This document shows positions 1 through 54,279 of a DNA stretch of 64,000 bases, piece after piece. Each line of letters begins with the position of its first letter. The first letter of the stretch is position 1. The stretch spans positions 18,917-82,916 of the forward strand of contig MFQZ01000010.1 of NCBI GenBank assembly GCA_001784435.1. The letters are read 5' to 3'. A program made the translations under genes and the position numbers. A model generated the notes under the pieces. The model was not told where the DNA came from and did not search any database. It worked only from the letters and a program-made list of their open reading frames with translations. Source of the DNA: Candidatus Magasanikbacteria bacterium RIFOXYC2_FULL_42_28 (GTDB lineage: Bacteria > Patescibacteriota > Patescibacteriia > Magasanikbacterales > GWA2-37-8).

Positions 1-270
1 TGAAAGCGAGTGGAATTTAGCAATTTCCGGTAAGGCATTGGCCACGCCCGGATTGGACAGTCCGACCGCGTTTAAAAAATAATCGTCCGTTCCCATCATG
101 GTGGGATTTTTGTGGCCTGGGCGAGGTTCCAGTGAGATTGATTTGGTAGTAACGCCGCCACAGCCGTTTTCAACCATGTGAGCCAAAGACGCGCCGGTAA
201 CGCCGAGAATGCCGGAGGCGAGGACTATTGGGTTAGAAAAGGTTTTATTTAGAAATGTTGTGTGTAGCAT
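1..270 (-). CDS. pyrD: dihydroorotate dehydrogenase, N-terminal part (gene runs off the window start)
   Basis: Minus-strand translation from ATG at 268-270 gives MLHTTFLNKTFSNPIVLASGILGVTGASLAHMVENGCGGVTTKSISLEPRPGHKNPTMMGTDDYFLNAVGLSNPG, the typical PyrD N-terminus. It lies upstream of the other pyr genes on the same strand. Confidence 0.6.
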   Translation of the reverse strand, partial: MLHTTFLNKTFSNPIVLASGILGVTGASLAHMVENGCGGVTTKSISLEPRPGHKNPTMMGTDDYFLNAVGLSNPGVANALPEIAKFHSLS

Positions 271-278
271 AAGTTGGC

Positions 279-388
279 AATGTCAAATTTCCAATTTCCA
301 ATGTCAAACCAATGTCAAAGCCAAAATGTCAAATTTGATATTGGGATTTTGGATTTGATTGGAAATTGGAAATTTGGATTTTGACATT
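279..388. repeat. palindromic MITE-like intergenic element, copy A (family P1, about 110 bp, imperfect about 30-bp terminal inverted repeats CAAATTTCCAATTTCCAATGTCAAA)
   Basis: Near-identical copies at 8098-8212, 25369-25478 and 48038-48150. Internal TTGACA/TGTCAA hexamers. Sits between the stop of the 391..1338 gene and the pyrD start. Confidence 0.85.
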
Positions 389-390
389 AT

Positions 391-1338
391 TTATACTTTC
401 TTTTCAAATAACCAAAGTATCACCGCCTTCTGCATATGCATGCGGTTCTCCGCTTGGTTGTAAATTACGGAATTTTTGTGGTCAATGGCATCGCGCGAAA
501 TTTCGTAGCCAACATGGCAGGGCATACAATGCATAATGCGCGCGTTGGGCGCATAAGTATCAACCATATTGGCATTGATTTGATAGGGCTTGAATGCAGC
601 CAAGCGACGATCATATTCAGCTTGGTATTCAGGAATAACTTTGCCATCTTTAAAAAATTCCATATCAATCCAAGTGTCGGTGTGAACATAATCTGTGCCA
701 GCGAGCGCTTCTTTTAAATTCAAAACTTTTTTTACTTTACCGGTTGCCTCGCACATTTGGTTTAATTCCGCGTCCACGCTTGGCGCGTTGGCTTCGGGTG
801 CGGCAATCGCAACTTCAATTCCTAATTTTGCGCAAGCAAGTTTTAAAGTATTGGAAACATTATTTTCAATTCCGAGCCAAGTAATCTTTTTTACGTTTTC
901 AATGCCATTAGAATATTCCGACATCGTTAAAATATCCGCGAGCGCTTGGCAAGGATGATATTTTTCCGAGCAAGCGTCGATCACTGGAATTTTATTAAAT
1001 GAAGCAGCAACTTCCACATCGCTGGCTTTCAAAGCGCGGAACATCAAAACTTGCCCATAGCGCATAATCGCTTGAATTTCATCGCGAAAATCGCAAAGTG
1101 ATAATTGCGTATTGCGTGAATCAATGTAAATCGCGTGTCCGCCGAGTTCGGTCATGCCGGCTTCAAACGATAGGCGAGTGCGAGTGGAAGTTTTTTGAAA
1201 AAGCATCAACAAAGTTTGGTTGTGCAAAATATCCACTGCTTCGCCAGCCGTTCGTTTAGCTTTTAATTTTTTCGCGATTGCTAAAATTTCTAGAATGTCT
1301 TCGCGAGTTTGTTCTTTTAGTGAGATTAAGTGACGCAT
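391..1338 (-). CDS. argF: ornithine carbamoyltransferase-family protein (OTCase/ATCase fold)
   Basis: STRTRLSFE carbamoyl-phosphate motif, HPCQ, DTWIDME (the OTCase DxWxSMG region) and HCMP (the OTCase HCLP motif rather than the ATCase HPLP). 315 aa. Confidence 0.75.
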   Translation of the reverse strand: MRHLISLKEQTREDILEILAIAKKLKAKRTAGEAVDILHNQTLLMLFQKTSTRTRLSFEAGMTELGGHAIYIDSRNTQLSLCDFRDEIQAIMRYGQVLMFRALKASDVEVAASFNKIPVIDACSEKYHPCQALADILTMSEYSNGIENVKKITWLGIENNVSNTLKLACAKLGIEVAIAAPEANAPSVDAELNQMCEATGKVKKVLNLKEALAGTDYVHTDTWIDMEFFKDGKVIPEYQAEYDRRLAAFKPYQINANMVDTYAPNARIMHCMPCHVGYEISRDAIDHKNSVIYNQAENRMHMQKAVILWLFEKKV

Positions 1339-1345
1339 ATTTTAT

Positions 1346-1434
1346 TAGTTCATAAATAATAGTTCATAGCCAATAATACAGATGATAAATTACCGAATCG
1401 CTCTATTGGCTTTGAACTATTGGCTATGAACTAT
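1346..1434. repeat. short intergenic repeats of the GTTCATAGCCAATAG family (two copies in inverted orientation)
   Basis: tagttcataaataatagttcatagccaat at 1346-1377 and its reverse complement ctattggctttgaactattggctatgaactatc at 1403-1434. Same motif at 2118-2150, 9101-9131 and 28353-28370. Confidence 0.7.
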
Positions 1435-2643
1435 CTTCACCGGCCACCCTTTTAATTTCCAACCATCAAACGGACTCCAACCGCACTTGGTTTTTAGATT
1501 TTTATTTTTCACAATTTTTTCTAAATCCAAATCCACAATTACCCAATCATTATTTGGTGGTAAATTGAATATTTTTTCAATGTTCAGACGGGTTAATTCC
1601 ACGATTTTTTGTATGGTAATTTTACCCTGATTATACTCGTTTAGCAAGAGCGGTAAATAGGTTTCAATGCCGGGAACGCCGGACGGAGATTGGGGGTATG
1701 GGAGGGCTTTTTCAGCTAAAGTATGGGGGGCATGGTCAGTACCGACAGTATCAATCGTGCCATCGTTTATAGCGCGCCACAAGGCATCTTGGTCGTGAGC
1801 TGTGCGTAAGGGTGGGTTCATTTGCGCTTTTGCGCCTAACAACTCGTAGGCGCTATCGTTGAGGAACAGGTGATGTGGTGTGGCTTCGGCAAAGACAGTT
1901 ACGCCGGCTTGCTTGGCACTGCGAATTAATTCCAGTTCTTCGGCTGTGCTTGCGTGTAAAACGTATAATTTGGTGTGATATTTTTTAGCAAATTCTGCTG
2001 CCTGCGTGACGGCTTTTATGGCAGCTTCGCGGGAGCGGATTTGGGAGTGGTGTTTTACGCTAAGGGATCCCTCCACTGCGGTCGGGATGACAGGGCTTCG
2101 CTGCGCTTCGCCCTGTAAACTATTAACTATGAACTGTTGGCTATTGGCTCGTATTATTTCATCATCCTCAGCGTGTACGGCTAATACCAAATTCAACTCT
2201 GCGCATTTTTTGAAAATTTTTTCTTGGGCGGAAATTTGTGACACTAATAGATCGCCAGTGGATGAGCCGACGAACATTTTGACGCCAATAATTTCATTCC
2301 TTACCTTATCAATTTCAGCCAGATTTTCCGCGGTGGCACCGAAATAAAAGTAGGGTCGGATTGGCTGGCAGGATTGCGCCAACAATTTATTGACGGCGGA
2401 TTTTTTTTGTTTTAATAATTCAAAAGTGCTTATCCCCGGCATGTTATTAGGCATATCCAATACTGTGGTAACGCCTCCGGCCACGGCCGCACCGGTCGTC
2501 CAATCTTCTTTATGTTCACCACCCGGCACGCGAAAATGGACGTGAGGGTCAATTAACGCTGGCAGTGCCAACAAATTTCGGTTAGAAAATTCCGCTGGAA
2601 AATCACATTCAATGTATTTATTATCCCAAGTTTTAATCTTCAT
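1417..2643 (-). CDS. pyrC: dihydroorotase, carrying an in-frame roughly 30-aa repeat-derived insertion
   Basis: DPHVHFR metal-binding N-terminus, DHAPH, AEDDEII and VLHASTAEELELI blocks typical of DHOase. Lies between the carbamoyltransferase and pyrI/pyrB. Confidence 0.85.
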   Translation of the reverse strand: MKIKTWDNKYIECDFPAEFSNRNLLALPALIDPHVHFRVPGGEHKEDWTTGAAVAGGVTTVLDMPNNMPGISTFELLKQKKSAVNKLLAQSCQPIRPYFYFGATAENLAEIDKVRNEIIGVKMFVGSSTGDLLVSQISAQEKIFKKCAELNLVLAVHAEDDEIIRANSQQFIVNSLQGEAQRSPVIPTAVEGSLSVKHHSQIRSREAAIKAVTQAAEFAKKYHTKLYVLHASTAEELELIRSAKQAGVTVFAEATPHHLFLNDSAYELLGAKAQMNPPLRTAHDQDALWRAINDGTIDTVGTDHAPHTLAEKALPYPQSPSGVPGIETYLPLLLNEYNQGKITIQKIVELTRLNIEKIFNLPPNNDWVIVDLDLEKIVKNKNLKTKCGWSPFDGWKLKGWPVKIVHSQ

Positions 2644-2647
2644 AAAT

Positions 2648-3121
2648 TTAGGCGCGGTGATATTCTTTTATATCTTCTTGTTTAAAAGTTCTTTCGCAGT
2701 AGTGGCATTTAAGTGACACACCCTGTTTATTTTTTTGAGTATGAAAAAGCGAATCCATCGATTCATTATTCGTAATACATTTTGGATTTGGGCAAACCAC
2801 CAGACCGGAAATTATTTCGGATAGTTCCACTTGATATTTTTTTACCACTTTGAAATCTTTAATTATGTTGATTACCGCGCTGGGAGAAAATATCGCGGTT
2901 AAGTTGGCTTTGCTTGGCGTAATTTCCCAATTGGCCAGTTTGATAATATCTTTTTTGCCACTGGTTTTGCTTGGTAGATGCATGCCGATGGTAACAACAT
3001 TGTCGTGATTTTCAACGCCTAAAATTGATAATATTTTTAGGGCCGAGCCGGCTTTGGCATGGTCAATCACCGTGCCGTTTTTAATGGCGGAAACAAGTAG
3101 GGTGCCAGTTTGTTGTATCAT
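2648..3121 (-). CDS. pyrI: aspartate carbamoyltransferase regulatory subunit
   Basis: C-terminal zinc domain CPNPKCITN...LKCHYCERTF. ATG at 3119-3121 (MIQQTG...) one nt after the pyrB stop. The ORF track's longer form overlaps pyrB and is not used. Confidence 0.85.
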   Translation of the reverse strand: MIQQTGTLLVSAIKNGTVIDHAKAGSALKILSILGVENHDNVVTIGMHLPSKTSGKKDIIKLANWEITPSKANLTAIFSPSAVINIIKDFKVVKKYQVELSEIISGLVVCPNPKCITNNESMDSLFHTQKNKQGVSLKCHYCERTFKQEDIKEYHRA

Positions 3122-3122
3122 A

Positions 3123-4043
3123 TTAAATAGCGTTAAGAACGAGCGCCAGTAGGGCCTGGCGGGCGTATAAACCGTTTTCCGCTTGCTCAAAATAGTAGGC
3201 ATGCGGAGTTTTATCAACGGCGTAGTCAATTTCATTGACGCGTGGTAGAGGATGCAATATTCGCAAATTCTTTTTAGCATTTTTTAAGTCCGCGACTGTC
3301 AATCGATAAACATCCTTCACGCGGTTGTATTCCATTTGGTCGGGAAATCTTTCGCCTTGAATCCGGGTCATGTATAAAACATCCAATTTGGGAATTATGT
3401 TTTCAAAACTTTCGTGTACACTAAATTTAATTCCTTTTTCACGAAGTTCAGTTAATAAATATTCAGGCATGGCCAAACTTGGTGGCGCGATAAAATACAA
3501 GCGCGCATTAAAATGGGTGAGTGCTTGCGCGAGCGAGTGCACGGTTCGGCCGTATTTGAGGTCACCCATCATGGCAATTGATAAATTATTTAATTTTCCT
3601 TGGGTTTCTTTAATGGACATTAAGTCCAAAAGCGTTTGGGTTGGGTGTTGGTTGGCGCCATCGCCACCGTTAATTACCGGTTTATCAGTGGCTTCGGCCG
3701 CGCGTCTGGCGGCACCTTCAAGTGGGTGGCGCATCGCAACAACATCTACATATTGACCGACAATTTTTATTGAATCGTAAAGTGTTTCGCCTTTTTTTGC
3801 AGAAGTGACGCCAGCATCGGCAAAGCCAACTACTTTTCCGCCCAGTCGTTGCATGGCGGTTTCAAATGAAAGGCGAGTGCGGGTGGATGGCTCAAAAAAA
3901 CAACTGCCCATGACTTTACCGGCAAGCAAATTCGGTTGTGGTTTCTTTTTTAATTCCAGCGCGAGTTTGACTATGGAATTTATTTCTGCCGGTGTCAATT
4001 CGTTTATCGAAATGATGTCACGGCCTTTTAGGGTGGAGAACAT
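3123..4043 (-). CDS. pyrB: aspartate carbamoyltransferase catalytic subunit
   Basis: [13 protein letters not shown] and HPLP motifs. Start taken as [16 protein letters not shown] (ATG at 4041-4043). The upstream in-frame ATG at 4115 would read through a hairpin plus T-run leader. Confidence 0.85.
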
Positions 4044-4053
4044 AAATTTGTTT

Positions 4054-4079
4054 AAAAAAAGTCCCGACTGAGTCGGGAC
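4054..4079 (-). promoter_or_regulatory. leader hairpin GTCCCGACTGAGTCGGGAC followed by U7, 11 nt before the pyrB ATG (attenuator-like; copy of the TCCCGAC-TNA-GTCGGGA palindrome)
   Basis: Perfect palindrome at 4061-4079 and an A7 run at 4054-4060 on the plus strand (a U-run on the pyrB sense strand). A possible promoter TTGCAA-17-TACACT lies further upstream on the minus strand (about 4135-4165). Confidence 0.5.
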
Positions 4080-4368
4080 TAAATAATAAATAATGAAAAT
4101 GCCAATCTTTGGCATCGTGAATGGATGTAAAAAAGGTATTGATCATATCGGGATTAGTGTAGCATTTTTGGAGTTGGTTTGCAAATGGATTTTTGGGTTT
4201 ATCCACACCTTATCTTGACAATATTATATAATTATGGCACAATATAACTAAGAAAAAGGCTTTTGGCAGGGGTTTATATATCACAACGTCGAAGGTCTTT
4301 TTTTGTTTTTATTCTTAGCTTCCACAAGAAATTTACAAAGTTGTATTTTGTCAATCATATTTTTTTGT

Positions 4369-11803: not shown

Positions 11804-12850
11804 TTAATTGGTAACAGTAAGATGATTGGCCAATTTTGCTTGGTATTTTTCCACTTCATTAATAATTTTTTTGGCAGTTGCAATGGTATAAGCGGCTCGC
11901 TTGTTCAGTCCAGTTTCATAGCCAAAAATTATTCCGGCGGCACCGTCTAGTACAATGTTGGTTAAGTCGCAGATATCCGCGCGGGTAGGTATATAGTTAT
12001 GAATGGTGCTGGCCAGAATGTGGGTAGATATTAGAATTGGTTTAGAAAATTTTTTAGCGCGAGACATTATCTGTTTTTGCAGTAAGCCGATTTTTTCAAA
12101 TGGCATGTTGACGCCCATCTCTCCGCGATCGATCAGTATCATATCAAAAAAATTATCTTGACAAATAGCGTTGAGTTCTTCGGCAGTAATATTTTTTTCT
12201 ATTTTTATGATGTATTTGAGTCGATTAGTTTTAGGTGGAAATAGCAGTTTTATTTTTTCGATAAACGATTTGCTAATATATGAACAAGCGAGATAGTCGG
12301 GGTGCAGACCGTTAATTTGCTCCAAAGTTTTTTTATAAATTTCAACCATGTAATCTTCGTCATAGATAGCGTAGTTATTACCCAAATTTACAGTTTTGGA
12401 ATTTCTTATGATGCCACTATTGATTATTTGGATTTTTACGATATCAGACGATATGATGTCTTTTATTTGTACTGTAACTTCCCCGTCTCCGATTGCAATT
12501 ATTTGCCCCAGCGATACTTTTGAGCCGATGTGCGGGATATTTAATGGTATGAATTCAAGACAATCCGGAGAGTAATCAGCGGAACGTAAGATAAGTTCGC
12601 TCCCTTCTTGTACCGGGAAAGTCTGACCTTCAAAAAATCCTAGGCGATGTTTATTAAGTGGAAAATCAATAAATTTTTTAACGGACGCATTTAAACTATC
12701 GATAACCTTTTCCGCTTTTTGAACCGATTCGATGTAGTTGTCGATGGAACGGTGAGACAAATTAAATCGCAATACATCCGCTCCGGTTAGGATCATTTTA
12801 ATTATTTGTTCTTCGGTAATGTTGTGACCGACAGAAGCAATTATCAACAT
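11804..12850 (-). CDS. pyk: pyruvate kinase, short form (no C-terminal allosteric domain)
   Basis: IIASVGHNITEEQIIKMILTGADVLRFNLSH ... MILIDRGEMGVNMPFEKIGLLQKQI ... PTRADICDLTNIVLDGAAGIIFGYETG matches the PK catalytic-core signatures. 348 aa. Confidence 0.8.
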   Translation of the reverse strand: MLIIASVGHNITEEQIIKMILTGADVLRFNLSHRSIDNYIESVQKAEKVIDSLNASVKKFIDFPLNKHRLGFFEGQTFPVQEGSELILRSADYSPDCLEFIPLNIPHIGSKVSLGQIIAIGDGEVTVQIKDIISSDIVKIQIINSGIIRNSKTVNLGNNYAIYDEDYMVEIYKKTLEQINGLHPDYLACSYISKSFIEKIKLLFPPKTNRLKYIIKIEKNITAEELNAICQDNFFDMILIDRGEMGVNMPFEKIGLLQKQIMSRAKKFSKPILISTHILASTIHNYIPTRADICDLTNIVLDGAAGIIFGYETGLNKRAAYTIATAKKIINEVEKYQAKLANHLTVTN

Positions 12851-12861
12851 AACACGCTAAG

Positions 12862-12893
12862 TTTAAAAACCTCTGCCGAAAAGCAGAGGTCTT
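12862..12893. terminator. bidirectional intrinsic terminator (CCTCTGC-loop-GCAGAGG with T-runs on both sides) downstream of rplA
   Basis: aaaaacctctgccgaaaagcagaggtctttt. Confidence 0.65.
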
Positions 12894-12897
12894 TTGT

Positions 12898-13578
12898 TTA
12901 ACTGTTAGTGGCGACTTTTATCGCCGGTCCCATCGAAGAGCACAAGGTCAAGCTTTGCAGATAGGATCCCTTTATTCCATCTGGCTTGGCCTTGTTTAAA
13001 GCGTCCAGAAAGGCCGTTAAGTTTTCTTTGAGCTGAGCTTCCGTAAAACTGACTCGCCCGACCAATTGGTGGACATTGGCTCCGTCATCATTTTTGAAAG
13101 TAACTTTGCCTTTTTTTAATTCTTCAATCATTTTTTTCAAGTTCGGGCCGACCGTTTCGGTTTTGGGATTAGGCATCAAGCCCTTCGGGCCCAACACTTT
13201 CGCGGCCATGGCCAATTTCGCCATCATGTCCGGCGTGGTAACAGCAATTTCAAAATTAATTTTGCCAGTGTCTTTAATTTTTTTAATATCTTCTTCACCG
13301 TAAACAAAATCCGCGCCGGCTTCTTTGGCTTCTTTTTCTCTTTCCGGAGAGACGAACGCGGCGACGGTTTTAGTTTTACCAGTGCCGTGGGGTAATACCA
13401 CAGTAGCGCGTACCTGTTGTTCGCCTTTTTTAACGTCAATCCCCAAGTGGGCGTGGACTTCAATACCGGCGTCAAATTTGACTCCGGATGTTTCGCGGGC
13501 GAGCTTAATGGCTTCGTCCAACGGGTAAACCTTGTTTTTTTCCACCTTGGAAGCAAGGCCTTTCATTCTTTTTCCCAT
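12898..13578 (-). CDS. rplA: 50S ribosomal protein L1
   Basis: MGKRMKGLASKVEKNKVYPLDEAIKLARETSGVKFDAGIEVHAHLGID. Full-length L1, standing alone with no rplK next to it. Confidence 0.9.
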   Translation of the reverse strand: MGKRMKGLASKVEKNKVYPLDEAIKLARETSGVKFDAGIEVHAHLGIDVKKGEQQVRATVVLPHGTGKTKTVAAFVSPEREKEAKEAGADFVYGEEDIKKIKDTGKINFEIAVTTPDMMAKLAMAAKVLGPKGLMPNPKTETVGPNLKKMIEELKKGKVTFKNDDGANVHQLVGRVSFTEAQLKENLTAFLDALNKAKPDGIKGSYLQSLTLCSSMGPAIKVATNS

Positions 13579-13655
13579 ACATTATATATAGAGTGGTACA
13601 AACTCCAGCCCGCCGGATGGCGGGGGCCGGATCCCACCTGCTTACAGTATACAGG

Positions 13656-13684
13656 ATTTTAGCGGATTTGGCCAGATTTGTCAA
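13656..13684 (-). promoter_or_regulatory. candidate rplA promoter (TTGACA-17-TAAAAT on the minus strand), followed by a structured leader
   Basis: Reverse complement of 13656-13684 reads TTGACAAATCTGGCCAAATCCGCTAAAAT. The leader contains the hairpin GCCCGCCGGATGGCGGGGGC. Confidence 0.45.
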
Positions 13685-13794
13685 GGGTGGGGGTCTTGAC
13701 AAAAGGTCAAAAATGTGCATAGCCGAAAATCACTATTTTGACAATTTGGCGATTTTGCCGTTGATATGGTAAAATAACAACAACCTAAAAAAAT

Positions 13795-15930
13795 ATGGCT
13801 GATAAATTTAAACATATAATTTTTAATCCGCGCGTGCGATTGTGTTTGGGTATTTTTGTGTTTATGGCCGTGCTCGGTTGGGTCTATTCCGGGCAGTGGC
13901 AAGTTTGGCGTAATCCGGATTTTCCGCCGAAAGTGGAAACGGCCAAGGCCGCCACTTGGTATAACGCCAGTTGGTCGTATCGCAAAACTGTTACGATTGA
14001 TTATACGAAAGTTTCTACCACTTTGTCTAATTTTCCAGTGATGGTGAGTACTACCGATAGCAATTTATCATCTTACGCGTCTTCTACTGGCGCGGATATT
14101 TTGTTTACATCTGACGATGGCACTACCAAACTTAATCACGAAATTGAAAGTTATACGAGTGCAACCGGGAAATTAATTGCTTGGGTAAATGTGACGAGCT
14201 TGTCTAATTCGGCGAATACTGTTCTTTATATGTATTATGGCAATACGGGGGCAGCGGATCAGCAAAATATTACCGGGACGTGGGATTCAAATTATGTGGG
14301 CGTATGGCACATGAAAGAAAATCCGTCCGGTTCGGCGCCCCAGATGAAAGATAGCACGACTAATGCCAATCATGGCACTACTCAAGGTTCAATGCCTTCC
14401 GGATCCTTGGTAAACGCGCAGATTGGCGATGGTTTGGATTTTAATGGTTCCAGTTATTATGTCTCTCTTCCGGTTACATCCTCGCTTAATATCACCGGGG
14501 CGATTACTGTTGAGACCTGGGTTTACGCGGATGCTCTTTCGTCGGCTAGAAGGTTTGTGTCTAAAAACAACACCGTAACCAAATCTTGGGAACTTAATTT
14601 TGAATCAGCTGTTGGTGGTTTAACTACCATGAGAGTTTTTGATGGCGGAACAATAAAACGTACGCAAGAAGCGGCAGCAATGACGGTCGGATCTTGGTTC
14701 CATTATGTCGGTGTATTTGATCCCAGCACTGCCGTGATAATTTATAAAAACGGCTCACAAAGCGGAGCTCTAACTTCCGGAATTCCGGCAGCGCAGAACG
14801 ACAATCCCAATATCGCGGTATTATTTGCTCGCAGTCCCTATGCTGGCTGTGTAAATTGTTATTTAGATGGCAAAATGGATGAAGTGCGCGTTTCCAATGT
14901 GGCCCGCTCCGCCGGTTGGATTTTAACCGAATATAACAATCAATATTCACCGTCGACCTTTTATAGTATAGAAAGTACAGCACAAACCCCGCCGTTTTTT
15001 GATCAAATTTATTATAAATTTTTTAATAATGCCGATTCTACTGATGTGGGCTTAAAATTGGCGAATCAAAATTTACCAGCTACTTTATCGGCCACCGGCG
15101 ACCCGTTCCGTTTGCGCTTGGGTTTACACGTCACCGGTAGTCAAATTGACGCGAGTGGCCAAAGTTTTAAATTACAGTTTGCGGAAAAATCAGGGGATTG
15201 CGATGGCGTTTTTTCCGGTGAAAGTTATGCTGATGTAACCGGAGCGACTGCAATTGCGTATTATGATAATGCCACCCCTAATGATGGTGATAGTTTGACT
15301 ATAAACGCGGGCGACCCAAATATTGGTAATAATGTGATTGAACAGACATATGAAGAGGCCAATAATTTTACCAATTCTGTGGGCGCGATTGCAGTCGGTG
15401 AAGAGGGTTTGTGGGATTTTTCTTTATACGATAATGGCGCGCCGGCCGATACCTCGTATTGTTTGCGGGTGATTAAATCAGATGGTAATAATATTGATAG
15501 TTATACCGAAATACCGGAAATAATTACTGCATCGGGCGCGTCACCAGTGGTGTCGGTCTCGGTCCAAGACGGAATTATTAGTTATGGCTATCTGTCAGCC
15601 GGTTCCAGTACCACCACAATTGCTATTGGCGATTCTCAAACTGTCACCAATAATGGTAATGTGGATATAGATTTGGGCATAAAAGGTTCAACATCTACGC
15701 CTGGCAATTGGACATTGGCTTCGCAAGTAGGCCCCGATCAATATGTTCATGAATATTCAGTTGATGTCGGTGATACTTGGGTGCCACTTACTGCCGATTA
15801 TCAACTTTTGGTTCCCGGAGTGCCGCCAGATGCCGGTGGTGTTATTGATTTCCGAATTCAAGTGCCAAGTTCAACTTCGGATTATAGTACGCAAAATGTT
15901 GATGTTACTATTTTGGCGATTCAATCATAG
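13795..15930 (+). CDS. large secreted/surface protein: N-terminal signal-anchor, DUF2341-like and LamG/concanavalin-like regions, and a C-terminal roughly 130-aa beta-domain paralogous to the next gene
   Basis: WYNASWSYRKTVTIDYTKV...ADILFTSDDGTTKLNHEIESY is DUF2341-like. VETWVYADALSSARRFVSKN is LamG-like. C-terminal IKGSTSTPGNWTLASQVGPDQY aligns with the 16025..16531 protein. Confidence 0.6.
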   Translation: MADKFKHIIFNPRVRLCLGIFVFMAVLGWVYSGQWQVWRNPDFPPKVETAKAATWYNASWSYRKTVTIDYTKVSTTLSNFPVMVSTTDSNLSSYASSTGADILFTSDDGTTKLNHEIESYTSATGKLIAWVNVTSLSNSANTVLYMYYGNTGAADQQNITGTWDSNYVGVWHMKENPSGSAPQMKDSTTNANHGTTQGSMPSGSLVNAQIGDGLDFNGSSYYVSLPVTSSLNITGAITVETWVYADALSSARRFVSKNNTVTKSWELNFESAVGGLTTMRVFDGGTIKRTQEAAAMTVGSWFHYVGVFDPSTAVIIYKNGSQSGALTSGIPAAQNDNPNIAVLFARSPYAGCVNCYLDGKMDEVRVSNVARSAGWILTEYNNQYSPSTFYSIESTAQTPPFFDQIYYKFFNNADSTDVGLKLANQNLPATLSATGDPFRLRLGLHVTGSQIDASGQSFKLQFAEKSGDCDGVFSGESYADVTGATAIAYYDNATPNDGDSLTINAGDPNIGNNVIEQTYEEANNFTNSVGAIAVGEEGLWDFSLYDNGAPADTSYCLRVIKSDGNNIDSYTEIPEIITASGASPVVSVSVQDGIISYGYLSAGSSTTTIAIGDSQTVTNNGNVDIDLGIKGSTSTPGNWTLASQVGPDQYVHEYSVDVGDTWVPLTADYQLLVPGVPPDAGGVIDFRIQVPSSTSDYSTQNVDVTILAIQS

Positions 15931-16024
15931 TAGCGCTGTGGATAAGTATGCCTGCGGGAGGGGGTTGGAGATAAAAAAGTTATGTGGTATAATATAGTTG
16001 TTAATTTGTTTAAATTTATTTTTT

Positions 16025-16531
16025 ATGAAAAATAAAAAACTGGATTTGGTAATCGGGGTTTTATTTGTGGTTGCGCTCGCGTTCGGGGTGTCGGCGCAGG
16101 GGGCTGATACCGGTACGGTAACGGCCACGGTAACAGTGCAAAATGTTTCGGTTACAGTGACTGACGGTGCGGTTGATTATGGTACGATGACGGTTAGTGA
16201 TACTGCAGACACTTTATCTGGCGATTTAAACGATCCTCAATACGCTGTTAATAGTGGTAATGTGGCGGAAACTTTAAATATAAAAGGGTCTACTTCAACG
16301 CCAGGTGATTGGACTTTGGCTGGGAGCGTCGGAGCGAATACCTATAAACACGCGTTTTCTACCAGCACCGATCCTAATTGGGTGGCAATGTCTGTTAACT
16401 ATCAAACCGTTACAACTACTTTGGCCGTCGCCGCCACCTCTACTCTGTACCTTCAGTTGAGCACGCCGTCTAGTGTTAGCAGTTATGTGGCCAACAATGT
16501 TGACTTAACCGTACAAGCGGTTGCCAACTAG
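16025..16531 (+). CDS. small secreted protein, paralogue of the C-terminal domain of the preceding giant protein (WxL-like beta domain with a WTL motif)
   Basis: Signal peptide MKNKKLDLVIGVLFVVALAFGVSAQGA. NIKGSTSTPGDWTLAGSVGANTYKH aligns with the C-terminus of the 13795..15930 protein. Thr/Ser/Val-rich. Confidence 0.6.
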   Translation: MKNKKLDLVIGVLFVVALAFGVSAQGADTGTVTATVTVQNVSVTVTDGAVDYGTMTVSDTADTLSGDLNDPQYAVNSGNVAETLNIKGSTSTPGDWTLAGSVGANTYKHAFSTSTDPNWVAMSVNYQTVTTTLAVAATSTLYLQLSTPSSVSSYVANNVDLTVQAVAN

Positions 16532-16557
16532 TTTTAAATGGTTGTTAAAATAAAGAT

Positions 16558-17148
16558 ATGCGGAAATTTATTTTTCTGATATTGATTTGTCTTCTGGCAA
16601 CGCCACTTTTAGTTTCCGCGCGTATTGGAGTGGGTGTGGGATCTGGTAAAATTGAGGTAAAAGAAAAATTAAAACCTGGTCAGTCCTATGATTTGCCGAT
16701 TTTACCAGTTATTAATAATGGTGATGAATTAACAGAATACGAAGTGACAATTGAATATCATGAGGGCGTTCCCGAATTGCGTCCGGCGCGAGAATGGATT
16801 GAATTTACCCCGCGGACATTTTCTTTAGAACCGGGTCAGGTTAAAAATGTTAAAGTAGAATTGAATTTGCCGGTGAAGGCCGAACCCGGTAATTACTTTG
16901 CGTATTTAGAAGGTCATCCGCTGAAGAAAAGTATTGGCACCGGTGGAGCGGCGGTGGGAATCGCGGCCGCGGCTAAAATGTATTTTACCGTCGTGCCCGC
17001 CAATATTTTTGCCGCTTGGTATTATAAATTGAGCACCTGGTATGGCCATTATCACCCGTTTAACACAGCCGTACTTGGCTTATTAGCGTTTATTTTTGTA
17101 GTATATTGGGTAAAAAAGAATTTTAAATTTCAGATTGCGAAGAAATGA
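16558..17148 (+). CDS. secreted protein with a C-terminal transmembrane anchor
   Basis: N-terminal signal peptide and C-terminal TM VLGLLAFIFVVYWVKKNF. Its position after the paired WxL-like proteins parallels the DUF916/CscA slot of Firmicute Csc loci; this parallel is an inference. Confidence 0.5.
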   Translation: MRKFIFLILICLLATPLLVSARIGVGVGSGKIEVKEKLKPGQSYDLPILPVINNGDELTEYEVTIEYHEGVPELRPAREWIEFTPRTFSLEPGQVKNVKVELNLPVKAEPGNYFAYLEGHPLKKSIGTGGAAVGIAAAAKMYFTVVPANIFAAWYYKLSTWYGHYHPFNTAVLGLLAFIFVVYWVKKNFKFQIAKK

Positions 17149-17161
17149 TTTACTGTTCGTC

Positions 17162-18232
17162 ATGAAAAAAGTACTTGGCAAAATTATTTTATTCTCTCTC
17201 CCCCTACTGGTTATTTCATTAGGGGCTTTTTTTTCTTATTCGGATTTTGTTATTGCCGCTTCTACCGCTTCGGTTAGCGCGACAATTAAAATAGAAATTT
17301 GCGGTGATAGTGTAAAAGATGATGGTGAAGAGTGTGATGGTAGTGATTTGAACGGTCAGTCCTGTACTAATTTTAGTGGATTTACCGGTGGAACATTATC
17401 CTGCTCGGCCGGATGCTTATTTGTTACAACCGGTTGCACAACAGCTGTTACTCCGCCAGGTGGCGGTGGGGGAGGTGGTGGCGGTGGTGGCGGTGGGCCA
17501 ATCACGCCCGTAATCACGAGCGCGGTATTTGTAGGGCGCGCTTATCCGGGCAGTTCAGTGACACTTTTAAAAGATGGTCAACTGGCCGTGCGCACCGTGG
17601 CCGGGCCGGACGCTAATTTTCAAATGACTTTGGCCGGACTGTCCGCCGGAAATTATATTTTTTCGCTTTATACTACCGATAGTGTTGGCCGACAATCGTC
17701 AGCTTTGACTTTTCCGGTGTATGTTACGAGCGGGGCCACCACGCGCGTGTCCGGAATTTTTTTAGCGCCGACCATTGCGGCTGATAAAAGTGAAGTGAAA
17801 CATGGCGACACCCTGTCTATTTTTGGCCAGTCTTTACCGCAAAGCGAAATTACGGTACAAGTGAATTCCACGCAAGAATTTTTTGCTAAAGCCAGAGCCG
17901 ACAAAGACGGTGTGTATTTATATAATTTAGATACGGCATTTTTGGAAATCGGCGATCATAGCGCGCGTTCCAAATCCACGGTGGAAAATGAAATTAGTGC
18001 TTACAGTGATCGGGTGGCTTTTAAAGTTGGGACCAAATCAGTGAATGAAGTGGTGGATACAACTTATAAAAAAGCGGACTTAAACCGTGATGGTAGTATT
18101 AATTTGGTGGATTTTTCCGTGGCCGCATATTGGTATAAACGGAAGTCGCCGCCGACGAAGTATGATTTAAATAATGATGGTAAGATTGATTTGGTGGATT
18201 TTAGTATTATGGCGTATTATTGGACAGGATAA
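17162..18232 (+). CDS. dockerin-domain surface protein (Cys-rich N-terminal repeat, Gly13 linker, Ig-like modules, C-terminal dockerin)
   Basis: Dockerin calcium-binding repeats DLNRDGSINLVDFSVAAY and DLNNDGKIDLVDFSIMAYYW. CGDSVKDDGEECDGSD is a Myxococcus-type Cys-rich repeat. PPGGGGGGGGGGGGGP is the linker. Start taken at MKKVLGKIILF (ATG at 17162). Confidence 0.7.
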   Translation: MKKVLGKIILFSLPLLVISLGAFFSYSDFVIAASTASVSATIKIEICGDSVKDDGEECDGSDLNGQSCTNFSGFTGGTLSCSAGCLFVTTGCTTAVTPPGGGGGGGGGGGGGPITPVITSAVFVGRAYPGSSVTLLKDGQLAVRTVAGPDANFQMTLAGLSAGNYIFSLYTTDSVGRQSSALTFPVYVTSGATTRVSGIFLAPTIAADKSEVKHGDTLSIFGQSLPQSEITVQVNSTQEFFAKARADKDGVYLYNLDTAFLEIGDHSARSKSTVENEISAYSDRVAFKVGTKSVNEVVDTTYKKADLNRDGSINLVDFSVAAYWYKRKSPPTKYDLNNDGKIDLVDFSIMAYYWTG

Positions 18233-18309
18233 CGACGAAAGATTGAAGAATAAAGATTAAAGATTGCGAATTATTTTTTGTTAATCTTCAATCTTTAATC
18301 TTTAATAAT

Positions 18310-19188
18310 GTGTATTTGTCTAAATTTAAAAATTTAATTATTATCGCATTAGTTTTTGTGTTATTTCCGAATGTAGCATTTGCCGCATCGTTATATTTTA
18401 ATTCTCCTAAAACCGATTACACCGTCGGCGAGCAATTTACCGCCAGTGTTTTGGTGGATTCAGTTAGCGAGCCGATTAACGCGTTTGAGGGTAAATTGGT
18501 TTTTTCTGATGATCAGTTGGAGGTGAAAGAAATTTTTATCGGTAATTCTATTATAAATTTTTGGCTGGACGCGCCTAAGGCCGATAAGGGTGAGATCAGA
18601 TTTTCCGGCATTGTGCCGGGCGGGTTTCAAGGTGATAATGGGTTATTGTTTTCGGCAGTATTTAGGGTTTTGTCAACGGGGTCAGGAGCAATAAAATTTT
18701 CGGATTATAAATTATTATTAAATGATGGACTCGGAACAATGGCCGTAACCACGGTGGCTAATTTAAATTTAACTATTAAACCGCTCGCTATTGGCGCGAG
18801 CGCGCCCGACTATTTACCATTTCCCGATGGCACTTTGCCCGAAGAATTTACACCGGAATTGACGCGCTCGCCGGAAGAATTTGGCAATCAATGGTTTTTA
18901 GTTTTTGCGACTCAAGACAAGGGTTCGGGCATTGATTACTACGAGGTGTGTGAAGGTAGCCAAGATAATTGCGAAAAAACCGACAGCCCGTATATTTTAA
19001 AAGACCAAAATTTAGTTGGTAAAATTTTTGTAAAAGCGGTTGATAAGCGTGGCAACGGTCGTTTGGTTGTTTTAGAGCCGCCGGGCGGTTTGGTGTGGTA
19101 TGAAAAATACCAAAATTATGTTATAATATTATTAGTATCAATTGCTTCTATTTTGTTAGTCCTCAAAAAATATGCGCGGAGGGTTTAA
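18310..19188 (+). CDS. cohesin-like domain protein with a C-terminal TM anchor
   Basis: Signal peptide. AASLYFNSPKTDYTVGEQFTASVLVDSVSEPINAFEGKLVFSDDQLEV...GEIRFSGIV...GLLFSAVFRVLSTGSGAIKF fits the cohesin consensus. C-terminal TM VIILLVSIASILLVL. Confidence 0.6.
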   Translation: MYLSKFKNLIIIALVFVLFPNVAFAASLYFNSPKTDYTVGEQFTASVLVDSVSEPINAFEGKLVFSDDQLEVKEIFIGNSIINFWLDAPKADKGEIRFSGIVPGGFQGDNGLLFSAVFRVLSTGSGAIKFSDYKLLLNDGLGTMAVTTVANLNLTIKPLAIGASAPDYLPFPDGTLPEEFTPELTRSPEEFGNQWFLVFATQDKGSGIDYYEVCEGSQDNCEKTDSPYILKDQNLVGKIFVKAVDKRGNGRLVVLEPPGGLVWYEKYQNYVIILLVSIASILLVLKKYARRV

Positions 19189-20914
19189 ATATTTATTAGC
19201 GGTTTTATTTTTTCTTTTATTGCCGACGGGCGCGGGTGCGGCGTCTTTATATTTGTCGCCCGCATCCGGCTCCTACGCCTTGAACAGTAATATCGCGGTG
19301 AATGTTTACGTTAGTAGCGCCGACAAAGCCATGAACGCGGTTTCGGGCGCGTTGGATTTTCCGGCGGATAAATTACAAGTGACTTCGGTTTCCAAAGCCG
19401 GCTCGGTAATTAATCTGTGGGTGACGGAGCCGTCGTATTCCAATTCCAATGGCACGGTTAATTTTGAAGGCGTGGCGTTAAATCCCGGTTATACCGGCAG
19501 TGGTGGCAAAATTATTACCATAAATTTCAAAGTAAAATCGGCGGGCGCGGGCGCGGTTAGTTTTATTTTCGGTTCGGTGTTGGCCAACGATGGCCAAGGT
19601 ACGGAAATTTTAACTGGCAAAAGTGGCGCCGGGTTTACTTTGGGCGAAGGAAAACCATTACCACCACCGGTTGAGGCGCCGGTGCCAGCCGGTAAACCGG
19701 TCGCGCCCAATGTCAGTTCTGTAACTCATCCGGACCCGGATAAATGGTATTCAGTGAAAGACGCGAAATTTGCGTGGAGTTTACCGGTCGGTGTTTCTAA
19801 AGCGCGTTTGTTAGTTGACAGTAAAGCCGACTCTGATCCCTCGGTGGTATATTCTCCGGCAGTTGGCGAAAAAGAAATGAAAGATGTTGGCGATGGCGTT
19901 TGGTATTTTCACGCGCAATTAAATAATGCCAAAGGTTGGGGAGGCATCGCGCATTTCCGTTTTCAAATTGATTCGGCTAACCCCATTGATTTGAAAGTAG
20001 TGGAGGTTAAGCGTGAAGATCAAACTGACCCACGCGTATCATTTAAATTAACCGCGGTTGACGATGGTTCGGGAATTGATTATTATGAAATTCGGGTTGA
20101 TAACACCGCGCCGATAATTTGGAAAGATGCCGGCACGCCAATTTATGAAACAGTCTCGTTAAAATCCGGTGATCATATTTTGACCGTGCGCGTTTTTGAT
20201 CAAGCGGGTAATTCTGCTTTGGAATCATTAAATTTTTCTATTAAGTCATTGGCGCAACCGGTCATAGAAAATTATCCGGAAAATTTACGTACCGGTTCTC
20301 CGCTTGTGATAATCGGCAAGACCTACCCGAGCAGTCAGGTGACCGGATATTTACAAAAGGGCGCGACCGAGCCGGTGGCAATCTCTGTGATGAGTGATGT
20401 GAATGGGCGGTTTGTGTTCGCGCCCAGCGATGAATTACGTTCGGGAAATTATTTAGTGTGGTTTCAAGTAGTGAAAGATAATGGTGCGCGTAGTGCCACG
20501 ACCGACAAATTCGCGATCGCGGTTTCTGAGCCGGCGATTTTGCGTGTTGGGTCATTGGCGGTAAATGTTTTGGCCGTAATAATTCCATTAATTGCACTCG
20601 TTATAATGTTGGGTGGTGTGCTGTGGTATGGCGCCTATCGGTTTAAACAGACGCGCCAAAGTTTGCGTGTGAAGACCGATGAAGTTGGTTTGGCGCGTCG
20701 GGCGTTTGACGCCTTGCTTGTGAATTTACAATCCGAAATAGATGTATTAGAACGCACTCATTTGAAACGCAAATTGACCGTTGAAGAAACTGCGATTTTG
20801 GGGCAATTGAAAAATGATTTGGCGGAAGCTCAAAAATTTTTAGGATGCAAACCAAAACCGCTTTTTGTGCCAAAAGTTATTCTTGGCAAGAGTATTAAGC
20901 CAAAAAAACGCTAA
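19172..20914 (+). CDS. cohesin-like domain membrane protein (cohesin, Pro-rich linker, Ig-like modules shared with the dockerin protein, TM, cytoplasmic coiled-coil tail)
   Basis: AASLYLSPASGSYALNSNIAVNVYVSSADKAMNAVSGALDFPADKLQV...GKIITINFKVKSAGAGAVSF cohesin pattern. GKTYPSSQVTGYLQKG...GNYLVWFQV module is homologous to GRAYPGSSVTLLKDG...GNYIFSLYT of the 17162 protein. TM LAVNVLAVIIPLIALVIMLGGVLWYGAY. Confidence 0.6.
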   Translation: MRGGFKYLLAVLFFLLLPTGAGAASLYLSPASGSYALNSNIAVNVYVSSADKAMNAVSGALDFPADKLQVTSVSKAGSVINLWVTEPSYSNSNGTVNFEGVALNPGYTGSGGKIITINFKVKSAGAGAVSFIFGSVLANDGQGTEILTGKSGAGFTLGEGKPLPPPVEAPVPAGKPVAPNVSSVTHPDPDKWYSVKDAKFAWSLPVGVSKARLLVDSKADSDPSVVYSPAVGEKEMKDVGDGVWYFHAQLNNAKGWGGIAHFRFQIDSANPIDLKVVEVKREDQTDPRVSFKLTAVDDGSGIDYYEIRVDNTAPIIWKDAGTPIYETVSLKSGDHILTVRVFDQAGNSALESLNFSIKSLAQPVIENYPENLRTGSPLVIIGKTYPSSQVTGYLQKGATEPVAISVMSDVNGRFVFAPSDELRSGNYLVWFQVVKDNGARSATTDKFAIAVSEPAILRVGSLAVNVLAVIIPLIALVIMLGGVLWYGAYRFKQTRQSLRVKTDEVGLARRAFDALLVNLQSEIDVLERTHLKRKLTVEETAILGQLKNDLAEAQKFLGCKPKPLFVPKVILGKSIKPKKR

Positions 20915-20923
20915 GATTAGCAA

Positions 20924-21011
20924 AGCGCAATCTGTCAAGACCCGACGCTTAGCGTCGGTAATGGGACGCTGAGCGTCCCCCTTGACAGATTTTTTATTTG
21001 TGATATAATCA
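20924..21011 (+). promoter_or_regulatory. nested-hairpin terminator-like structure overlapping the rpsA promoter (TTGACA at 20982-20987, TATAAT at 21004-21009)
   Basis: Outer inverted repeat AATCTGTCAAG...CTTGACAGATT encloses two inner hairpins, GACGCTTAGCGTC and GGACGCTGAGCGTCC. The -35 hexamer is the 3-prime arm of the outer stem. Confidence 0.5.
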
Positions 21012-21098
21012 TTTCAGATTTAATTAAGCCCTTTTGGGCACTCGGCTCCCGATTTAATCGGGACGGGCTAAGCGCGTTTTTTTTGTTCTATAAATTAT

Positions 21099-22307
21099 AT
21101 GACTTTAAGTGACAAGACCAGTGTAAAGCCGGATTTTAAAACATTACTGCAAGACAACCCGATTAATTTTCCCAAAGTGGGGGATTTGGTTAAGGGTAAG
21201 GTATTGTCTGTGGACAAAGGCGAAATTCACGTTGATATTGAAGGATTGACCACCGGTGTGGTGCGGGGCGCGGAGTTGTTCGCGGAATCGCGCGAGCATG
21301 CTAATTTGAAAGTAGGCGACGAAGTGGAAGCGACGGTTACGGAAATGGAAAATGAAAATGGAGAATTGGAATTGTCGTTCCGCATCGCCGGTTTTCAACG
21401 CGCTTGGGATGCTGTTAAGAAATGGATGAAAGACGGCTTGACCATTAAAGCCAAAATTACCGGCGCTAACAAGGGAGGGCTCATGATGCAAGTAGAGGCC
21501 CTGGCCGGTTTTATGCCGGTATCGCAATTGTCTCCGGAAAATTACCCGCGCGTGGCCGGTGGGGACAAAAATCGTATTTTTGAAAAATTACAAGAATTGA
21601 TTGGCACTGATATGGAGGTTAAAGTAATTGACGCTGATGAAAAAGATGAAAAATTAATCGTGTCCGCGCGCGCGGTGTGGGAAGACAGCCAAAAAGCGGT
21701 ATTGGATTCTTACAAAGTGGGCGATACGGTGGACGGTGAAGTAAGCGCCCTGACATCATTTGGCGCGTTCTTGAAATTTGGCGAGGGCTTAGAAGGGTTG
21801 GTTCATATTTCCGAAATTGCTTGGCAGAGAATTGAACACCCGCGCGATTTGTTAAAAGTAGGAGACAGAGTCAAGGCCAAAATTATTCAATTGGATAAAT
21901 CCAAAATTTATTTGTCGTTGAAACGGTTAGTAGATGATCCGTGGAAACAGGTGGCGGAGAAATATAAAGTGGGCGACAAGGTAAAAGGAAAAATTATTAA
22001 AATTGAAGCGTTCGGTCTCATGGTCGCGCTTGATCAGAATATTCATGGTTTGGCGCATGTGTCGGAATTGTCCGACGCGCCTTTGGCCAATGTCGCTGAC
22101 AAATTTAAAATCAACCAAGAAGTGGAATTTGAAATCGTCAATATTGAGGCGATTGAACACCGCTTGGGTTTGCGCGTGGCCGGAGTAAAAGGAAAAGCGC
22201 CGAAAGCGCCAAAGGCGAAAAAGGGTGAAAAGAGCGAAAAAGCCGAAGAGACGCCCGAGGCCAAAGCGGAAACGAAATCGGAGTTAGAAGAAAAAAAGGC
22301 CGAGTAA
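21099..22307 (+). CDS. rpsA: 30S ribosomal protein S1 (four S1 domains, Lys/Glu-rich tail)
   Basis: Repeated S1-domain pattern GDLVKGKVLSVDKGEIHVDI, GDTVDGEVSALTSFGAFLKF..GLVHISEIAW and GDKVKGKIIKIEAFGLMVAL..HGLAHVSEL. Confidence 0.85.
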   Translation: MTLSDKTSVKPDFKTLLQDNPINFPKVGDLVKGKVLSVDKGEIHVDIEGLTTGVVRGAELFAESREHANLKVGDEVEATVTEMENENGELELSFRIAGFQRAWDAVKKWMKDGLTIKAKITGANKGGLMMQVEALAGFMPVSQLSPENYPRVAGGDKNRIFEKLQELIGTDMEVKVIDADEKDEKLIVSARAVWEDSQKAVLDSYKVGDTVDGEVSALTSFGAFLKFGEGLEGLVHISEIAWQRIEHPRDLLKVGDRVKAKIIQLDKSKIYLSLKRLVDDPWKQVAEKYKVGDKVKGKIIKIEAFGLMVALDQNIHGLAHVSELSDAPLANVADKFKINQEVEFEIVNIEAIEHRLGLRVAGVKGKAPKAPKAKKGEKSEKAEETPEAKAETKSELEEKKAE

Positions 22308-54193: not shown

Positions 54194-54195
54194 TG

Positions 54196-54279
54196 TGCCG
54201 CGAGAGAGAATCGAACTCTCATGACCTTGCGATCGCTGGATTTTGAGTCCAGTGCGTCTACCAGTTCCGCCATCGCGGC
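54196..54279 (-). tRNA. tRNA-Leu (anticodon CAA), type II with long variable arm
   Basis: GCCGCGATGGCGGAACTGGTAGACGCACTGGACTCAAAATCCAGCGATCGCAAGGTCATGAGAGTTCGATTCTCTCTCGCGGCA. 7-bp acceptor stem, CUCAAAA anticodon loop, GTTCGATTC T-loop. CCA is not encoded. Confidence 0.9.

Follow-up and report, generated by a model that had tools for sequence, protein, structure and literature searches.

What do six consecutive genes for exported proteins, lying between a ribosomal protein gene and the gene for an S1-domain protein in Candidatus Magasanikbacteria bacterium RIFOXYC2_FULL_42_28, build on the surface of the cell? The genes, here called P1 to P6 after their products, occupy positions 13795-20914 of a 64,000-nucleotide stretch of contig MFQZ01000010.1; this whole stretch is the window of our analysis, and all coordinates refer to it. 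Patescibacteria (the candidate phyla radiation, CPR) account for a large share of bacterial diversity, and most of them are thought to live attached to a host by means that are largely unclear. To our knowledge, before the 2026 preprint on the Pam pili that is discussed below, only type IV pili had been implicated in this attachment.

We propose, with a probability that we would put at roughly 55%, that the six genes specify a single surface appendage: a pilus that this monoderm Patescibacterium would assemble by donor-strand exchange, with the help of a chaperone and without an usher, with P4 as its terminator and P5 and P6 as its anchors. An initial annotation, made from the letters of this stretch and their translations, had described a cell-surface assembly cluster with a cohesin-dockerin pair and had likened it both to the Csc/WxL loci of Firmicutes and to a cellulosome scaffold. 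Its observation is correct in all checkable details, one start codon and some family assignments being amended below, and a role in surface display or host attachment is a reasonable reading. Three features that it missed (the pilin-like nature of the shared beta-domain, a strand motif common to P2 and P4, and the PapD-like fold of P3) point to a donor-strand-exchange fibre and not to a static complex.

Pilin-like, strand-bearing and PapD-like parts

All six open reading frames (ORFs) run on the plus strand, as annotated, and every product begins with a hydrophobic N-terminal segment, in agreement with the signal peptides that had been read; a hydrophobicity scan places C-terminal transmembrane helices in P3, P5 and P6. 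The junctions between the ORFs are short or overlapping, and the start of P6 overlaps the stop of P5, suggesting co-translation in one operon. P1 (13795-15930; 711 residues), the candidate tip adhesin, carries a DUF2341 domain (residues 99-162; 14089-14280; E 2e-10, 41.5 bits against a Pfam cut-off of 23.4) and a LamG domain (Laminin_G_3, residues 217-376; 14443-14922; E 2e-20, 73.8 bits against 27.6), so that both regions named in the initial annotation score above the gathering thresholds. At its C-terminus is a pilin-like domain (residues 586-711; 15550-15927), of which residues 586-709 align by BLASTP with residues 42-167 of P2 at 39% identity (E 1e-25), with IKGSTSTPG(N/D)WTLA common to both. 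The paralogy of P2 with the end of P1 had been recognised correctly; the start of P2 had been set one codon early, at 16022, and the gene as we read it (16025-16531, with an ATG at 16025) codes for 168 residues. This candidate major pilin consists of a signal peptide (residues 1-27), a candidate N-terminal donor strand, DTGTVTATVTVQN (residues 28-40; 16106-16144), and an Ig-like (immunoglobulin-like) core (residues 43-167). Neither P2 nor P3 matched any Pfam or NCBIfam family, and searches of PDB sequences with P1, P2, P3, P6 and the P2 and P3 family profiles returned nothing significant.

The AlphaFold2 model of P2, built on 23 sequences (predicted local distance difference test score, pLDDT, 88), is a beta-sandwich that is confident from residue 44, preceded by an unfolded stretch at about residues 21-43; no part of the protein is more strongly conserved across 58 family members than this stretch, TGTVTATVTVQNVSV. 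Compared by Foldseek with all PDB chains, the model found as its top matches CupE, the FimA rods, PapE, FimF/G, CsuA/B and PapA, with probabilities of up to 0.98, E-values of only about 1e-2 and TM (template-modelling) scores of about 0.4. When the family was aligned by hhalign with 13 fimbrial subunits of E. coli K-12, only the P2 strand aligned, and it did so to the N-terminal extension of FimA. The Pfam Fimbrial and PapD models stayed below threshold for the window proteins, the P2 family and the P3 homologues.

Few close homologues of P2 were found, none of them annotated. When 1.84 billion representative proteins were searched with a profile, the P2-domain family, which has no Pfam model, comprised 2100 clusters at 50% identity, and these fell into two kinds: proteins of about 170 residues that are matched from their N-terminus, and proteins of 290-1600 residues that are matched at their extreme C-terminus only. 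In the large proteins the match begins at about profile position 20-40, which leaves out the signal peptide and the greater part of the N-terminal strand. The same asymmetry is seen among the related loci, which we collected by a scan for the P2 family with one genome per species (57 loci returned) and annotated by iterative hidden Markov model (HMM) searches over all ORFs of 60 loci. The motif [VI]xA[TS][VI]x[VIL] stands directly after the signal peptide in 40 of 58 small pilins (as VTATVTV) and in 26 of 49 P4 homologues, where the family consensus is V-N-A-T-I/V-K-I-S-V-C-G-N and the window protein has VSATIKI (P4 residues 38-44; 17273-17293); it occurs in one of the 1157 other ORFs of these loci and precedes the pilin domain in none of 48 large proteins. 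A putative acceptor without a strand (P1), a strand with an acceptor (P2) and a strand without an acceptor (P4) would together match the division of labour between tip, rod and terminator that is known from donor-strand-exchange pili.

At their N-termini the large proteins bear hypervariable cargo, which includes LamG/DUF2341, Gly_rich_2, DUF7483, subtilases (S8 proteases), BNR, fn3 and CHB_HEX_C domains, among others, as would be expected of an exchangeable adhesin or effector tip. These otherwise unrelated N-termini have one element in common, a leader with the motif W[IL]FSGWPxIWQNPxIPPxIxxAxA after the hydrophobic segment (in the window VYSGQWQVWRNPDFPPKVETAKA, within the leader at P1 residues 1-52; 13795-13950). 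A regular expression for it retrieved 16 ORFs in the fetched loci, all 16 of them large pilin-domain proteins (among them those of the loci that we number L006, L010, L014, L035, L040, L043 and L055); this leader may serve as a long signal peptide of a specialised kind or as a signal for the initiation of assembly.

P3 (16558-17148; 196 residues), the candidate membrane-anchored PapD-like chaperone, has a signal peptide and, as annotated, a C-terminal transmembrane helix (residues 167-189; 17056-17124; hydrophobicity scan). Its model (40 sequences; pLDDT 84.5) shows one beta-sandwich (residues 29-145; 16642-16992) followed by an amphipathic helix and the transmembrane helix, and the flexible loop before the last strand (loop and strand together, residues 122-145) is modelled with low confidence yet is conserved. 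The fold belongs to the PapD-like superfamily, with fimbrial chaperones among the structural matches; the protein has a single, membrane-anchored domain in place of the pair (PF00345 and PF02753) that defines two-domain PapD-family chaperones. P3 is better conserved than any other protein of the cassette (the best 120 of 254 homologues are 48-99% identical), and the Joint Genome Institute labels three of its homologues “P pilus assembly chaperone PapD.”

A comparison with the closest relative of the window, the syntenic locus L004 of a Magasanikbacteria metagenome-assembled genome, bears on the pairing of P2 with P3. P1, P4 and FtsH are 89-91% identical between the two, whereas P2 is 57% and P3 67% identical, and the nucleotide match breaks off just after the signal peptide and strand of P2 and resumes at the start of P4 (the diverged block is 16150-17181 in the window and 10129-11190 in L004). 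This pattern suggests that the P2 core and P3 were swapped as one block, probably by recombinational replacement, and a subunit and the chaperone that serves it would be expected to be exchanged jointly in this way.

The same parts can be read as a static surface display of the WxL kind, in which P1 and P2 would sit on the cell wall by way of their shared beta-domain without forming a polymer, P3 would be an analogue of WxLIP that stabilises them from the membrane by strand insertion, and P4-P6 would be an adjacent scaffold. The layout does parallel that of the Firmicute WxL clusters, with a small domain-only protein, a large protein whose N-terminal binding domains vary and an Ig-like transmembrane partner, and strand insertion between the WxLIP partner and the shared domain has been predicted for those clusters (PMC10599100); furthermore, there is usually just one small and one large protein per cassette. 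The mirror of Csc/WxL loci drawn in the initial annotation is real, and conserved, as far as the large and small paralogues and their membrane-anchored Ig-like partner go, and it fails at family membership: no WxL match (PF13731) was found in P1 or P2 at E<=1 or in 23 P2-family members, no DUF916/DUF3324 signal was found in the cassette, and P3 has one Ig domain and not the DUF916 plus DUF3324 pair. Among 40 P3 homologues, WxLIP_PGBD matched one (E 0.11), as against ten with sub-threshold PapD_N matches. The cassette also has no LPXTG partner, and WxL clusters contain no cohesin-dockerin pair. Two further points are the best structural matches of P2, which are polymerising pilins, and its conserved, free N-terminal strand, which lies outside its own fold, is common to P4 and is absent from P1; a polymer would need this asymmetry, and a static wall-binding domain would not. 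We therefore regard the static arrangement as unlikely, though it is the alternative that we take most seriously.

The candidate cohesin-dockerin pair and the conservation of the cassette

P4 (17162-18232; 356 residues; alternative TTG start at 17135), the candidate terminator and anchor adaptor, has a signal peptide and, behind its strand motif, the features that had been read from its translation: a six-Cys module (residues 47-92; 17300-17437), a Gly13 run (residues 100-112), Ig-like modules (with a Big_6 match in Pfam) and a dockerin (residues 305-351; 18074-18214). The last is sound at the level of family (Dockerin_1, PF00404, 30.8 bits against a cut-off of 22.9), of Ca2+-binding loops, of which there are two of the DxNxDGxIxxxD type (DLNRDGSINLVD and DLNNDGKIDLVD in the translation), and of known structures, the solved cellulosomal dockerin 2y3n_B matching it with E 0.0013. 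Matches of P4 to single-chain antibody fragments (scFv) were rejected as artefacts of the Gly13 run, and a homologue search with its first 100 residues found nothing.

The two membrane proteins that follow had both been called cohesins. For P6 (19172-20914; 580 residues) the assignment is borne out by Pfam (Cohesin, PF00963, residues 36-146; 19277-19609; 27.0 bits against a cut-off of 24.1); P5 (18310-19188; 292 residues; GTG start), taken alone, falls short of that cut-off with 16.9 bits, yet its N-terminal domain is paralogous to that of P6 (32% identity, E 9e-19). P5 consists of a signal peptide, the cohesin-like domain (residues 34-148; 18409-18753), an Ig-like domain and a C-terminal transmembrane helix (residues 271-289). 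P6 has a signal peptide, the cohesin, Ig modules of the Big_13/OmpL47 type (Big_13 in Pfam and barrel_OmpL47 in NCBIfam), a transmembrane helix (residues 466-491; 20567-20644) and a conserved cytoplasmic tail (residues 492-580) that is kept in 14 loci. Both transmembrane anchors were recovered by the hydrophobicity scan, and the Ig-like modules that P6 had been said to share with P4 do match (E 1e-5). Across the cassette loci, HMM searches found Dockerin_1 in 31 of 44 P4 homologues and Cohesin in 29 of 53 partner proteins (best E 2.4e-12).

Genuine cohesin and dockerin modules, together with LamG, BNR and CHB_HEX_C domains on some of the large proteins, might suggest a miniature cellulosome-like complex that binds or degrades polysaccharide. 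The resemblance to a cellulosome scaffold seen in the initial annotation does not hold, however: the sole dockerin-bearing protein of each cassette has no enzyme domain, no enzyme-borne dockerin came to light, and scans of the six cassette proteins of the window, of 44 P4-family proteins and of 53 cohesin-partner proteins detected no glycoside-hydrolase domain. The cohesin and dockerin genes, moreover, belong integrally to a cassette of five parts. A chitobiase/hexosaminidase C-terminal accessory domain (CHB_HEX_C_1) occurs in one of 47 large proteins. In addition, lineages whose tip domains differ widely, proteases included, have retained the cassette, and we consider a polysaccharide-degrading complex essentially excluded. 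An essential “dockerin” protein of Southlakia epibionticum, SEML1_0315 (PMC10633639), is the product of a stand-alone gene (927 residues) with unrelated neighbours and does not belong to this cassette; those supplements of that paper which we examined did not contain cohesin or dockerin accessions.

That P4 and the cohesin proteins work together is suggested by their co-occurrence and by the way in which their types co-vary. In a short subtype, a P4 of about 170-250 residues goes with one cohesin protein of about 340 residues that has N-terminal transmembrane segments; in a long subtype, to which the window cassette belongs, a P4 of about 350 residues with Ig modules is accompanied by two cohesin proteins, one of about 300 and one of about 590 residues, that have C-terminal transmembrane helices. 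Wherever P4 bears a dockerin, a cohesin protein adjoins the cassette, the four exceptions being loci truncated by the end of a contig. In locus L027 (4242-5852) a P4 variant of 536 residues keeps the strand motif and the Cys-rich module and has no dockerin; it ends in a transmembrane helix (residues 506-524), and no cohesin gene follows it. This replacement of the dockerin by a transmembrane helix fits the idea that dockerin and membrane cohesin act jointly as a membrane anchor.

The wider conservation of the cluster, which the initial annotation had proposed to check, is extensive. The pilin-like domain is present in all 60 loci (110 ORFs), typically in one large and one small protein per locus, P3 in 57, the Cys-rich module of P4 in 49, the dockerin in 44 and the cohesin in 43, and most absences coincide with contig ends. 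The usual order is that of the window: the large protein, the small protein of about 170 residues, P3 of about 200 residues, the Cys-rich dockerin protein and the cohesin membrane protein or proteins. Most of the P2-family loci come from metagenome-assembled genomes labelled as Magasanik-, Davies-, Roizman-, Levy-, Pace-, Moran-, Nealson-, Falkow- and Wildermuthbacteria as well as from WWE3, WS6/Dojkabacteria, Saccharibacteria and Microsyncoccus. The recurrence of this gene order in 57 other genomes, each at species level, argues for one system, neither a chance association nor a cellulosome. Twelve of the records that carry the otherwise Patescibacteria-restricted cassette (L006, L012, L018, L021, L025, L026, L032, L035, L038, L050, L057 and L059) are titled Gammaproteobacteria, Pseudomonadales or Bdellovibrionales; these labels of automated bins are probably wrong. 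An ORF of L026 that appears to fuse the pilin with P3 is an artefact of a masked run of N.

The cassette could nonetheless be two independent modules that travel together with no physical link between them, P1-P3 forming an adhesin with its helper and chaperone, and P4-P6 a scaffold that recruits a ligand-binding Cys-rich P4. The halves do occur apart, in that P1-P3 stand without P4 or cohesin in L008, L013, L041, L036 and L059, and these genomes often code for cohesin and dockerin proteins at other sites too, for example in L001. Against their independence are the strict adjacency and order of the genes in about 40 loci of very divergent lineages, the start and stop codons that overlap or nearly abut through the cassette, and the N-terminus of P4, which has the strand motif of P2 at an equal distance from the signal peptide. 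Taken together, we find two unconnected modules quite improbable, and the single appendage remains our preferred reading.

Several loci depart from the common pattern. In L055 (8930-14768; Candidatus Microsyncoccus archaeolyticus PMX.50, from an enrichment) the cluster comprises the large protein together with P3, P4 and a pair of cohesin proteins and has no small pilin; either the rod subunit is coded elsewhere or this version makes no polymer. In L008 (10007-14132), L013 (677-5090) and L041 (6814-10433) the small pilin lies 5' of a large subtilase protein (Peptidase_S8 with a fervidolysin prodomain), P3 follows, and P4 and the cohesin are replaced by an ORF of about 180-208 residues with an N-terminal transmembrane helix and a common “VTINPL” motif. 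In L001, a related metagenomic genome, the 16S rRNA gene is directly 3' of the cassette (regions 1-4132 and 13267-14764), and about 8 kb upstream of the cassette lie further cohesin+VWA and cohesin+dockerin genes and an N_methyl (type IV pilin-like) gene; cohesin-dockerin modules thus make up a wider network in these genomes.

Assembly model and nearest known systems

If the six proteins do form one appendage, its assembly might proceed as follows. All six parts, each with its N-terminal leader, would be exported by Sec. P1 would form the tip, its variable N-terminal adhesin (here DUF2341 and LamG) resting on an incomplete C-terminal Ig pilin domain that could accept a strand and would have none to give. 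P2 would polymerise, its N-terminal strand (TVTATVTVQN) filling the groove of the previously assembled subunit, so that the fibre would grow from its base, and P3, a single PapD-like Ig domain held at the membrane by its C-terminal helix, would cap and prime the subunits before exchange, as PamC and PamD do in the Pam system. Insertion of P4, which has the N-terminal strand motif and no pilin domain, would stop polymerisation, and its C-terminal dockerin would bind the cohesins of P5 and P6 and thereby hold the completed fibre at the cell. Its probable role would be attachment to a host cell or a substrate, with specificity set by the swappable tip domain.

The closest functional precedent comes from within the CPR. 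Pam pili of Candidatus Mycosynbacter amalyticus, solved in a June 2026 preprint, are CPR-specific, Sec-exported, usher-less donor-strand fibres of Ig-like pilins, and their parts include PapD/FimC-like chaperones with a C-terminal transmembrane helix (PamC/D), an acceptor-only tip (PamT) and a membrane-anchored, strand-inserting terminator (PamR) (bioRxiv 10.64898/2026.03.03.709456). By analogy, P3 may correspond to the membrane-held chaperones, the C-terminal domain of P1 to PamT, and P4 with P5 and P6 to PamR, which makes a donor-strand model plausible in this phylum. The comparison was made with the description given in the preprint, and it reveals clear differences. Each Pam pilin has two domains (a nine-strand N-terminal domain and a truncated Ig C-terminal domain), a mass of 39-55 kDa and a donor strand in the linker, whereas P2 has just one Ig domain (about 14 kDa, about 140 residues) with its strand at the N-terminus, and so is not a pilin of the Pam kind; PamR has its own transmembrane helix, whereas in the cassette anchoring would be shared between a dockerin protein and membrane proteins with cohesins; and the preprint mentions no cohesin, dockerin or LamG and places the pam operon next to ATP synthase genes.

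The chaperone-usher pili (Fim, Pap, Csu, Cup) resemble the cassette in the pilin-like fold and candidate N-terminal donor extension of P2, the PapD-like fold of P3, a proposed tip adhesin of two domains, the C-terminal one pilin-like (the logic of FimH and PapG), and a proposed termination by a special subunit. They differ in having an usher, an outer membrane and chaperones that are neither one-domain nor membrane-anchored. Patescibacteria are a monoderm lineage, and no usher-like gene was found in the cassette or the window; thus the cassette may “work like” a chaperone-usher pilus without being a member of that class. Usher-less donor-strand fibres are also made by monoderms and archaea, as in tafi, TasA and the archaeal bundling pili. 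In haloarchaeal tafi, TafC at the tip unites a laminin-G domain with a pilin-like one and the membrane anchor is TafF, and assembly depends on a dedicated signal peptidase (TafD/SipW) and a DUF5305 protein (TafG) (PMC11821415). However, the pilin-like domain of TafC is N-terminal and that of P1 C-terminal, and the cassette has no S24/S26 signal peptidase gene, no DUF5305 gene and no Tat signals; an assignment of P1 to TafC was rejected, as its NCBIfam score was 29.7 bits against a cut-off of 410 and covered the LamG region only. With cellulosomes the cassette has in common Pfam-level cohesin and dockerin modules, the two canonical F-hand loops in P4 and a cohesin carrier fixed to the cell. This carrier is held by a transmembrane helix and not by SLH modules or a sortase, and the docked protein carries a pilin-type strand motif and a Cys-rich module, no enzyme domain, within a pilus-like operon, so that the overlap is confined to the cohesin-dockerin modules themselves.

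Several points weigh against a donor-strand pilus. The support comes from sequences and monomer models, from which we infer the filament and its complexes. The hhalign match of the P2 family to E. coli pilins reaches a probability of 27% over 12 residues, which is not significant, and that of P3 to five E. coli K-12 chaperones, although 106 columns are in register over the N-domain of PapD, reaches 10% and is not significant either; homology with chaperone-usher systems is accordingly unproven, and the resemblance is one of fold and architecture. P3 has one Ig domain where PapD and PamC/D have two, and structurally it matches WxLIP just as well as it matches the fimbrial chaperones. The N-terminal motif shared by P2 and P4 could bind elsewhere, for instance to P3 or to a cohesin. 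Finally, the parts list is not universal, given L055 with no small pilin and the S8-protease type with neither P4 nor cohesin.

Donor-strand pili are already known and, with Pam, are now known in the CPR as well. Across 8 million papers and preprints, in the literature on cohesin, dockerin and PapD in Patescibacteria or CPR and on cohesin domains in Saccharibacteria we found no published description of this cassette, and for CPR donor-strand fibres we found only the Pam preprint, which concerns a different operon. We would suggest, tentatively and at a little less than even odds, that the cassette represents a second type of pilus in the CPR, widespread there and as yet undescribed: an usher-free fibre of chaperone-usher-like build, with a one-domain membrane PapD-like chaperone, an exchangeable tip payload (lectins, proteases, Gly-rich fibres) and a strand-donating dockerin cap seated in membrane cohesins. 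The potentially unprecedented feature is the cohesin-dockerin joint as a pilus anchor, which, if the model is correct, would be the first such use of this pair and would give a concrete role to many non-cellulosomal cohesins and dockerins whose presence in Patescibacteria is puzzling. Given its many CPR lineages and hypervariable tips, the cassette, if it does make a fibre, would be a prime candidate for host or substrate recognition.

Transcription signals and surroundings

Two promoter-like sites on the plus strand come from a consensus scan only, one 5' of P1 (13746..13775, TTGGCG-18-TAAAAT with TG), for which this is weak evidence, and another 5' of P2 (15966..15993, TGGAGA-16-TATAAT with TG). 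A perfect sigma-70 consensus, TTGACA-16-TATAAT with an extended -10 TG, lies at 20982-21009, 5' of the S1-domain gene, and marks the end of the cassette transcription unit. No RNA elements were found in 12800-21300 (Rfam), and no second copy of any cassette part occurs elsewhere in the window. The flanking genes are rplA, for ribosomal protein L1, on the minus strand (12898-13578) and, on the other side, the S1-domain protein gene (21099-22307) followed by ftsH.

Beyond FtsH, the window also codes for a secretion or pilus ATPase of the T2SSE type, DprA, SecY and a ribosomal protein cluster, as well as for topoisomerase I, GatB, thymidylate synthase/DHFR and two carbamoyltransferase paralogues. 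Its single tRNA gene, Leu-CAA, is at 54195-54279.

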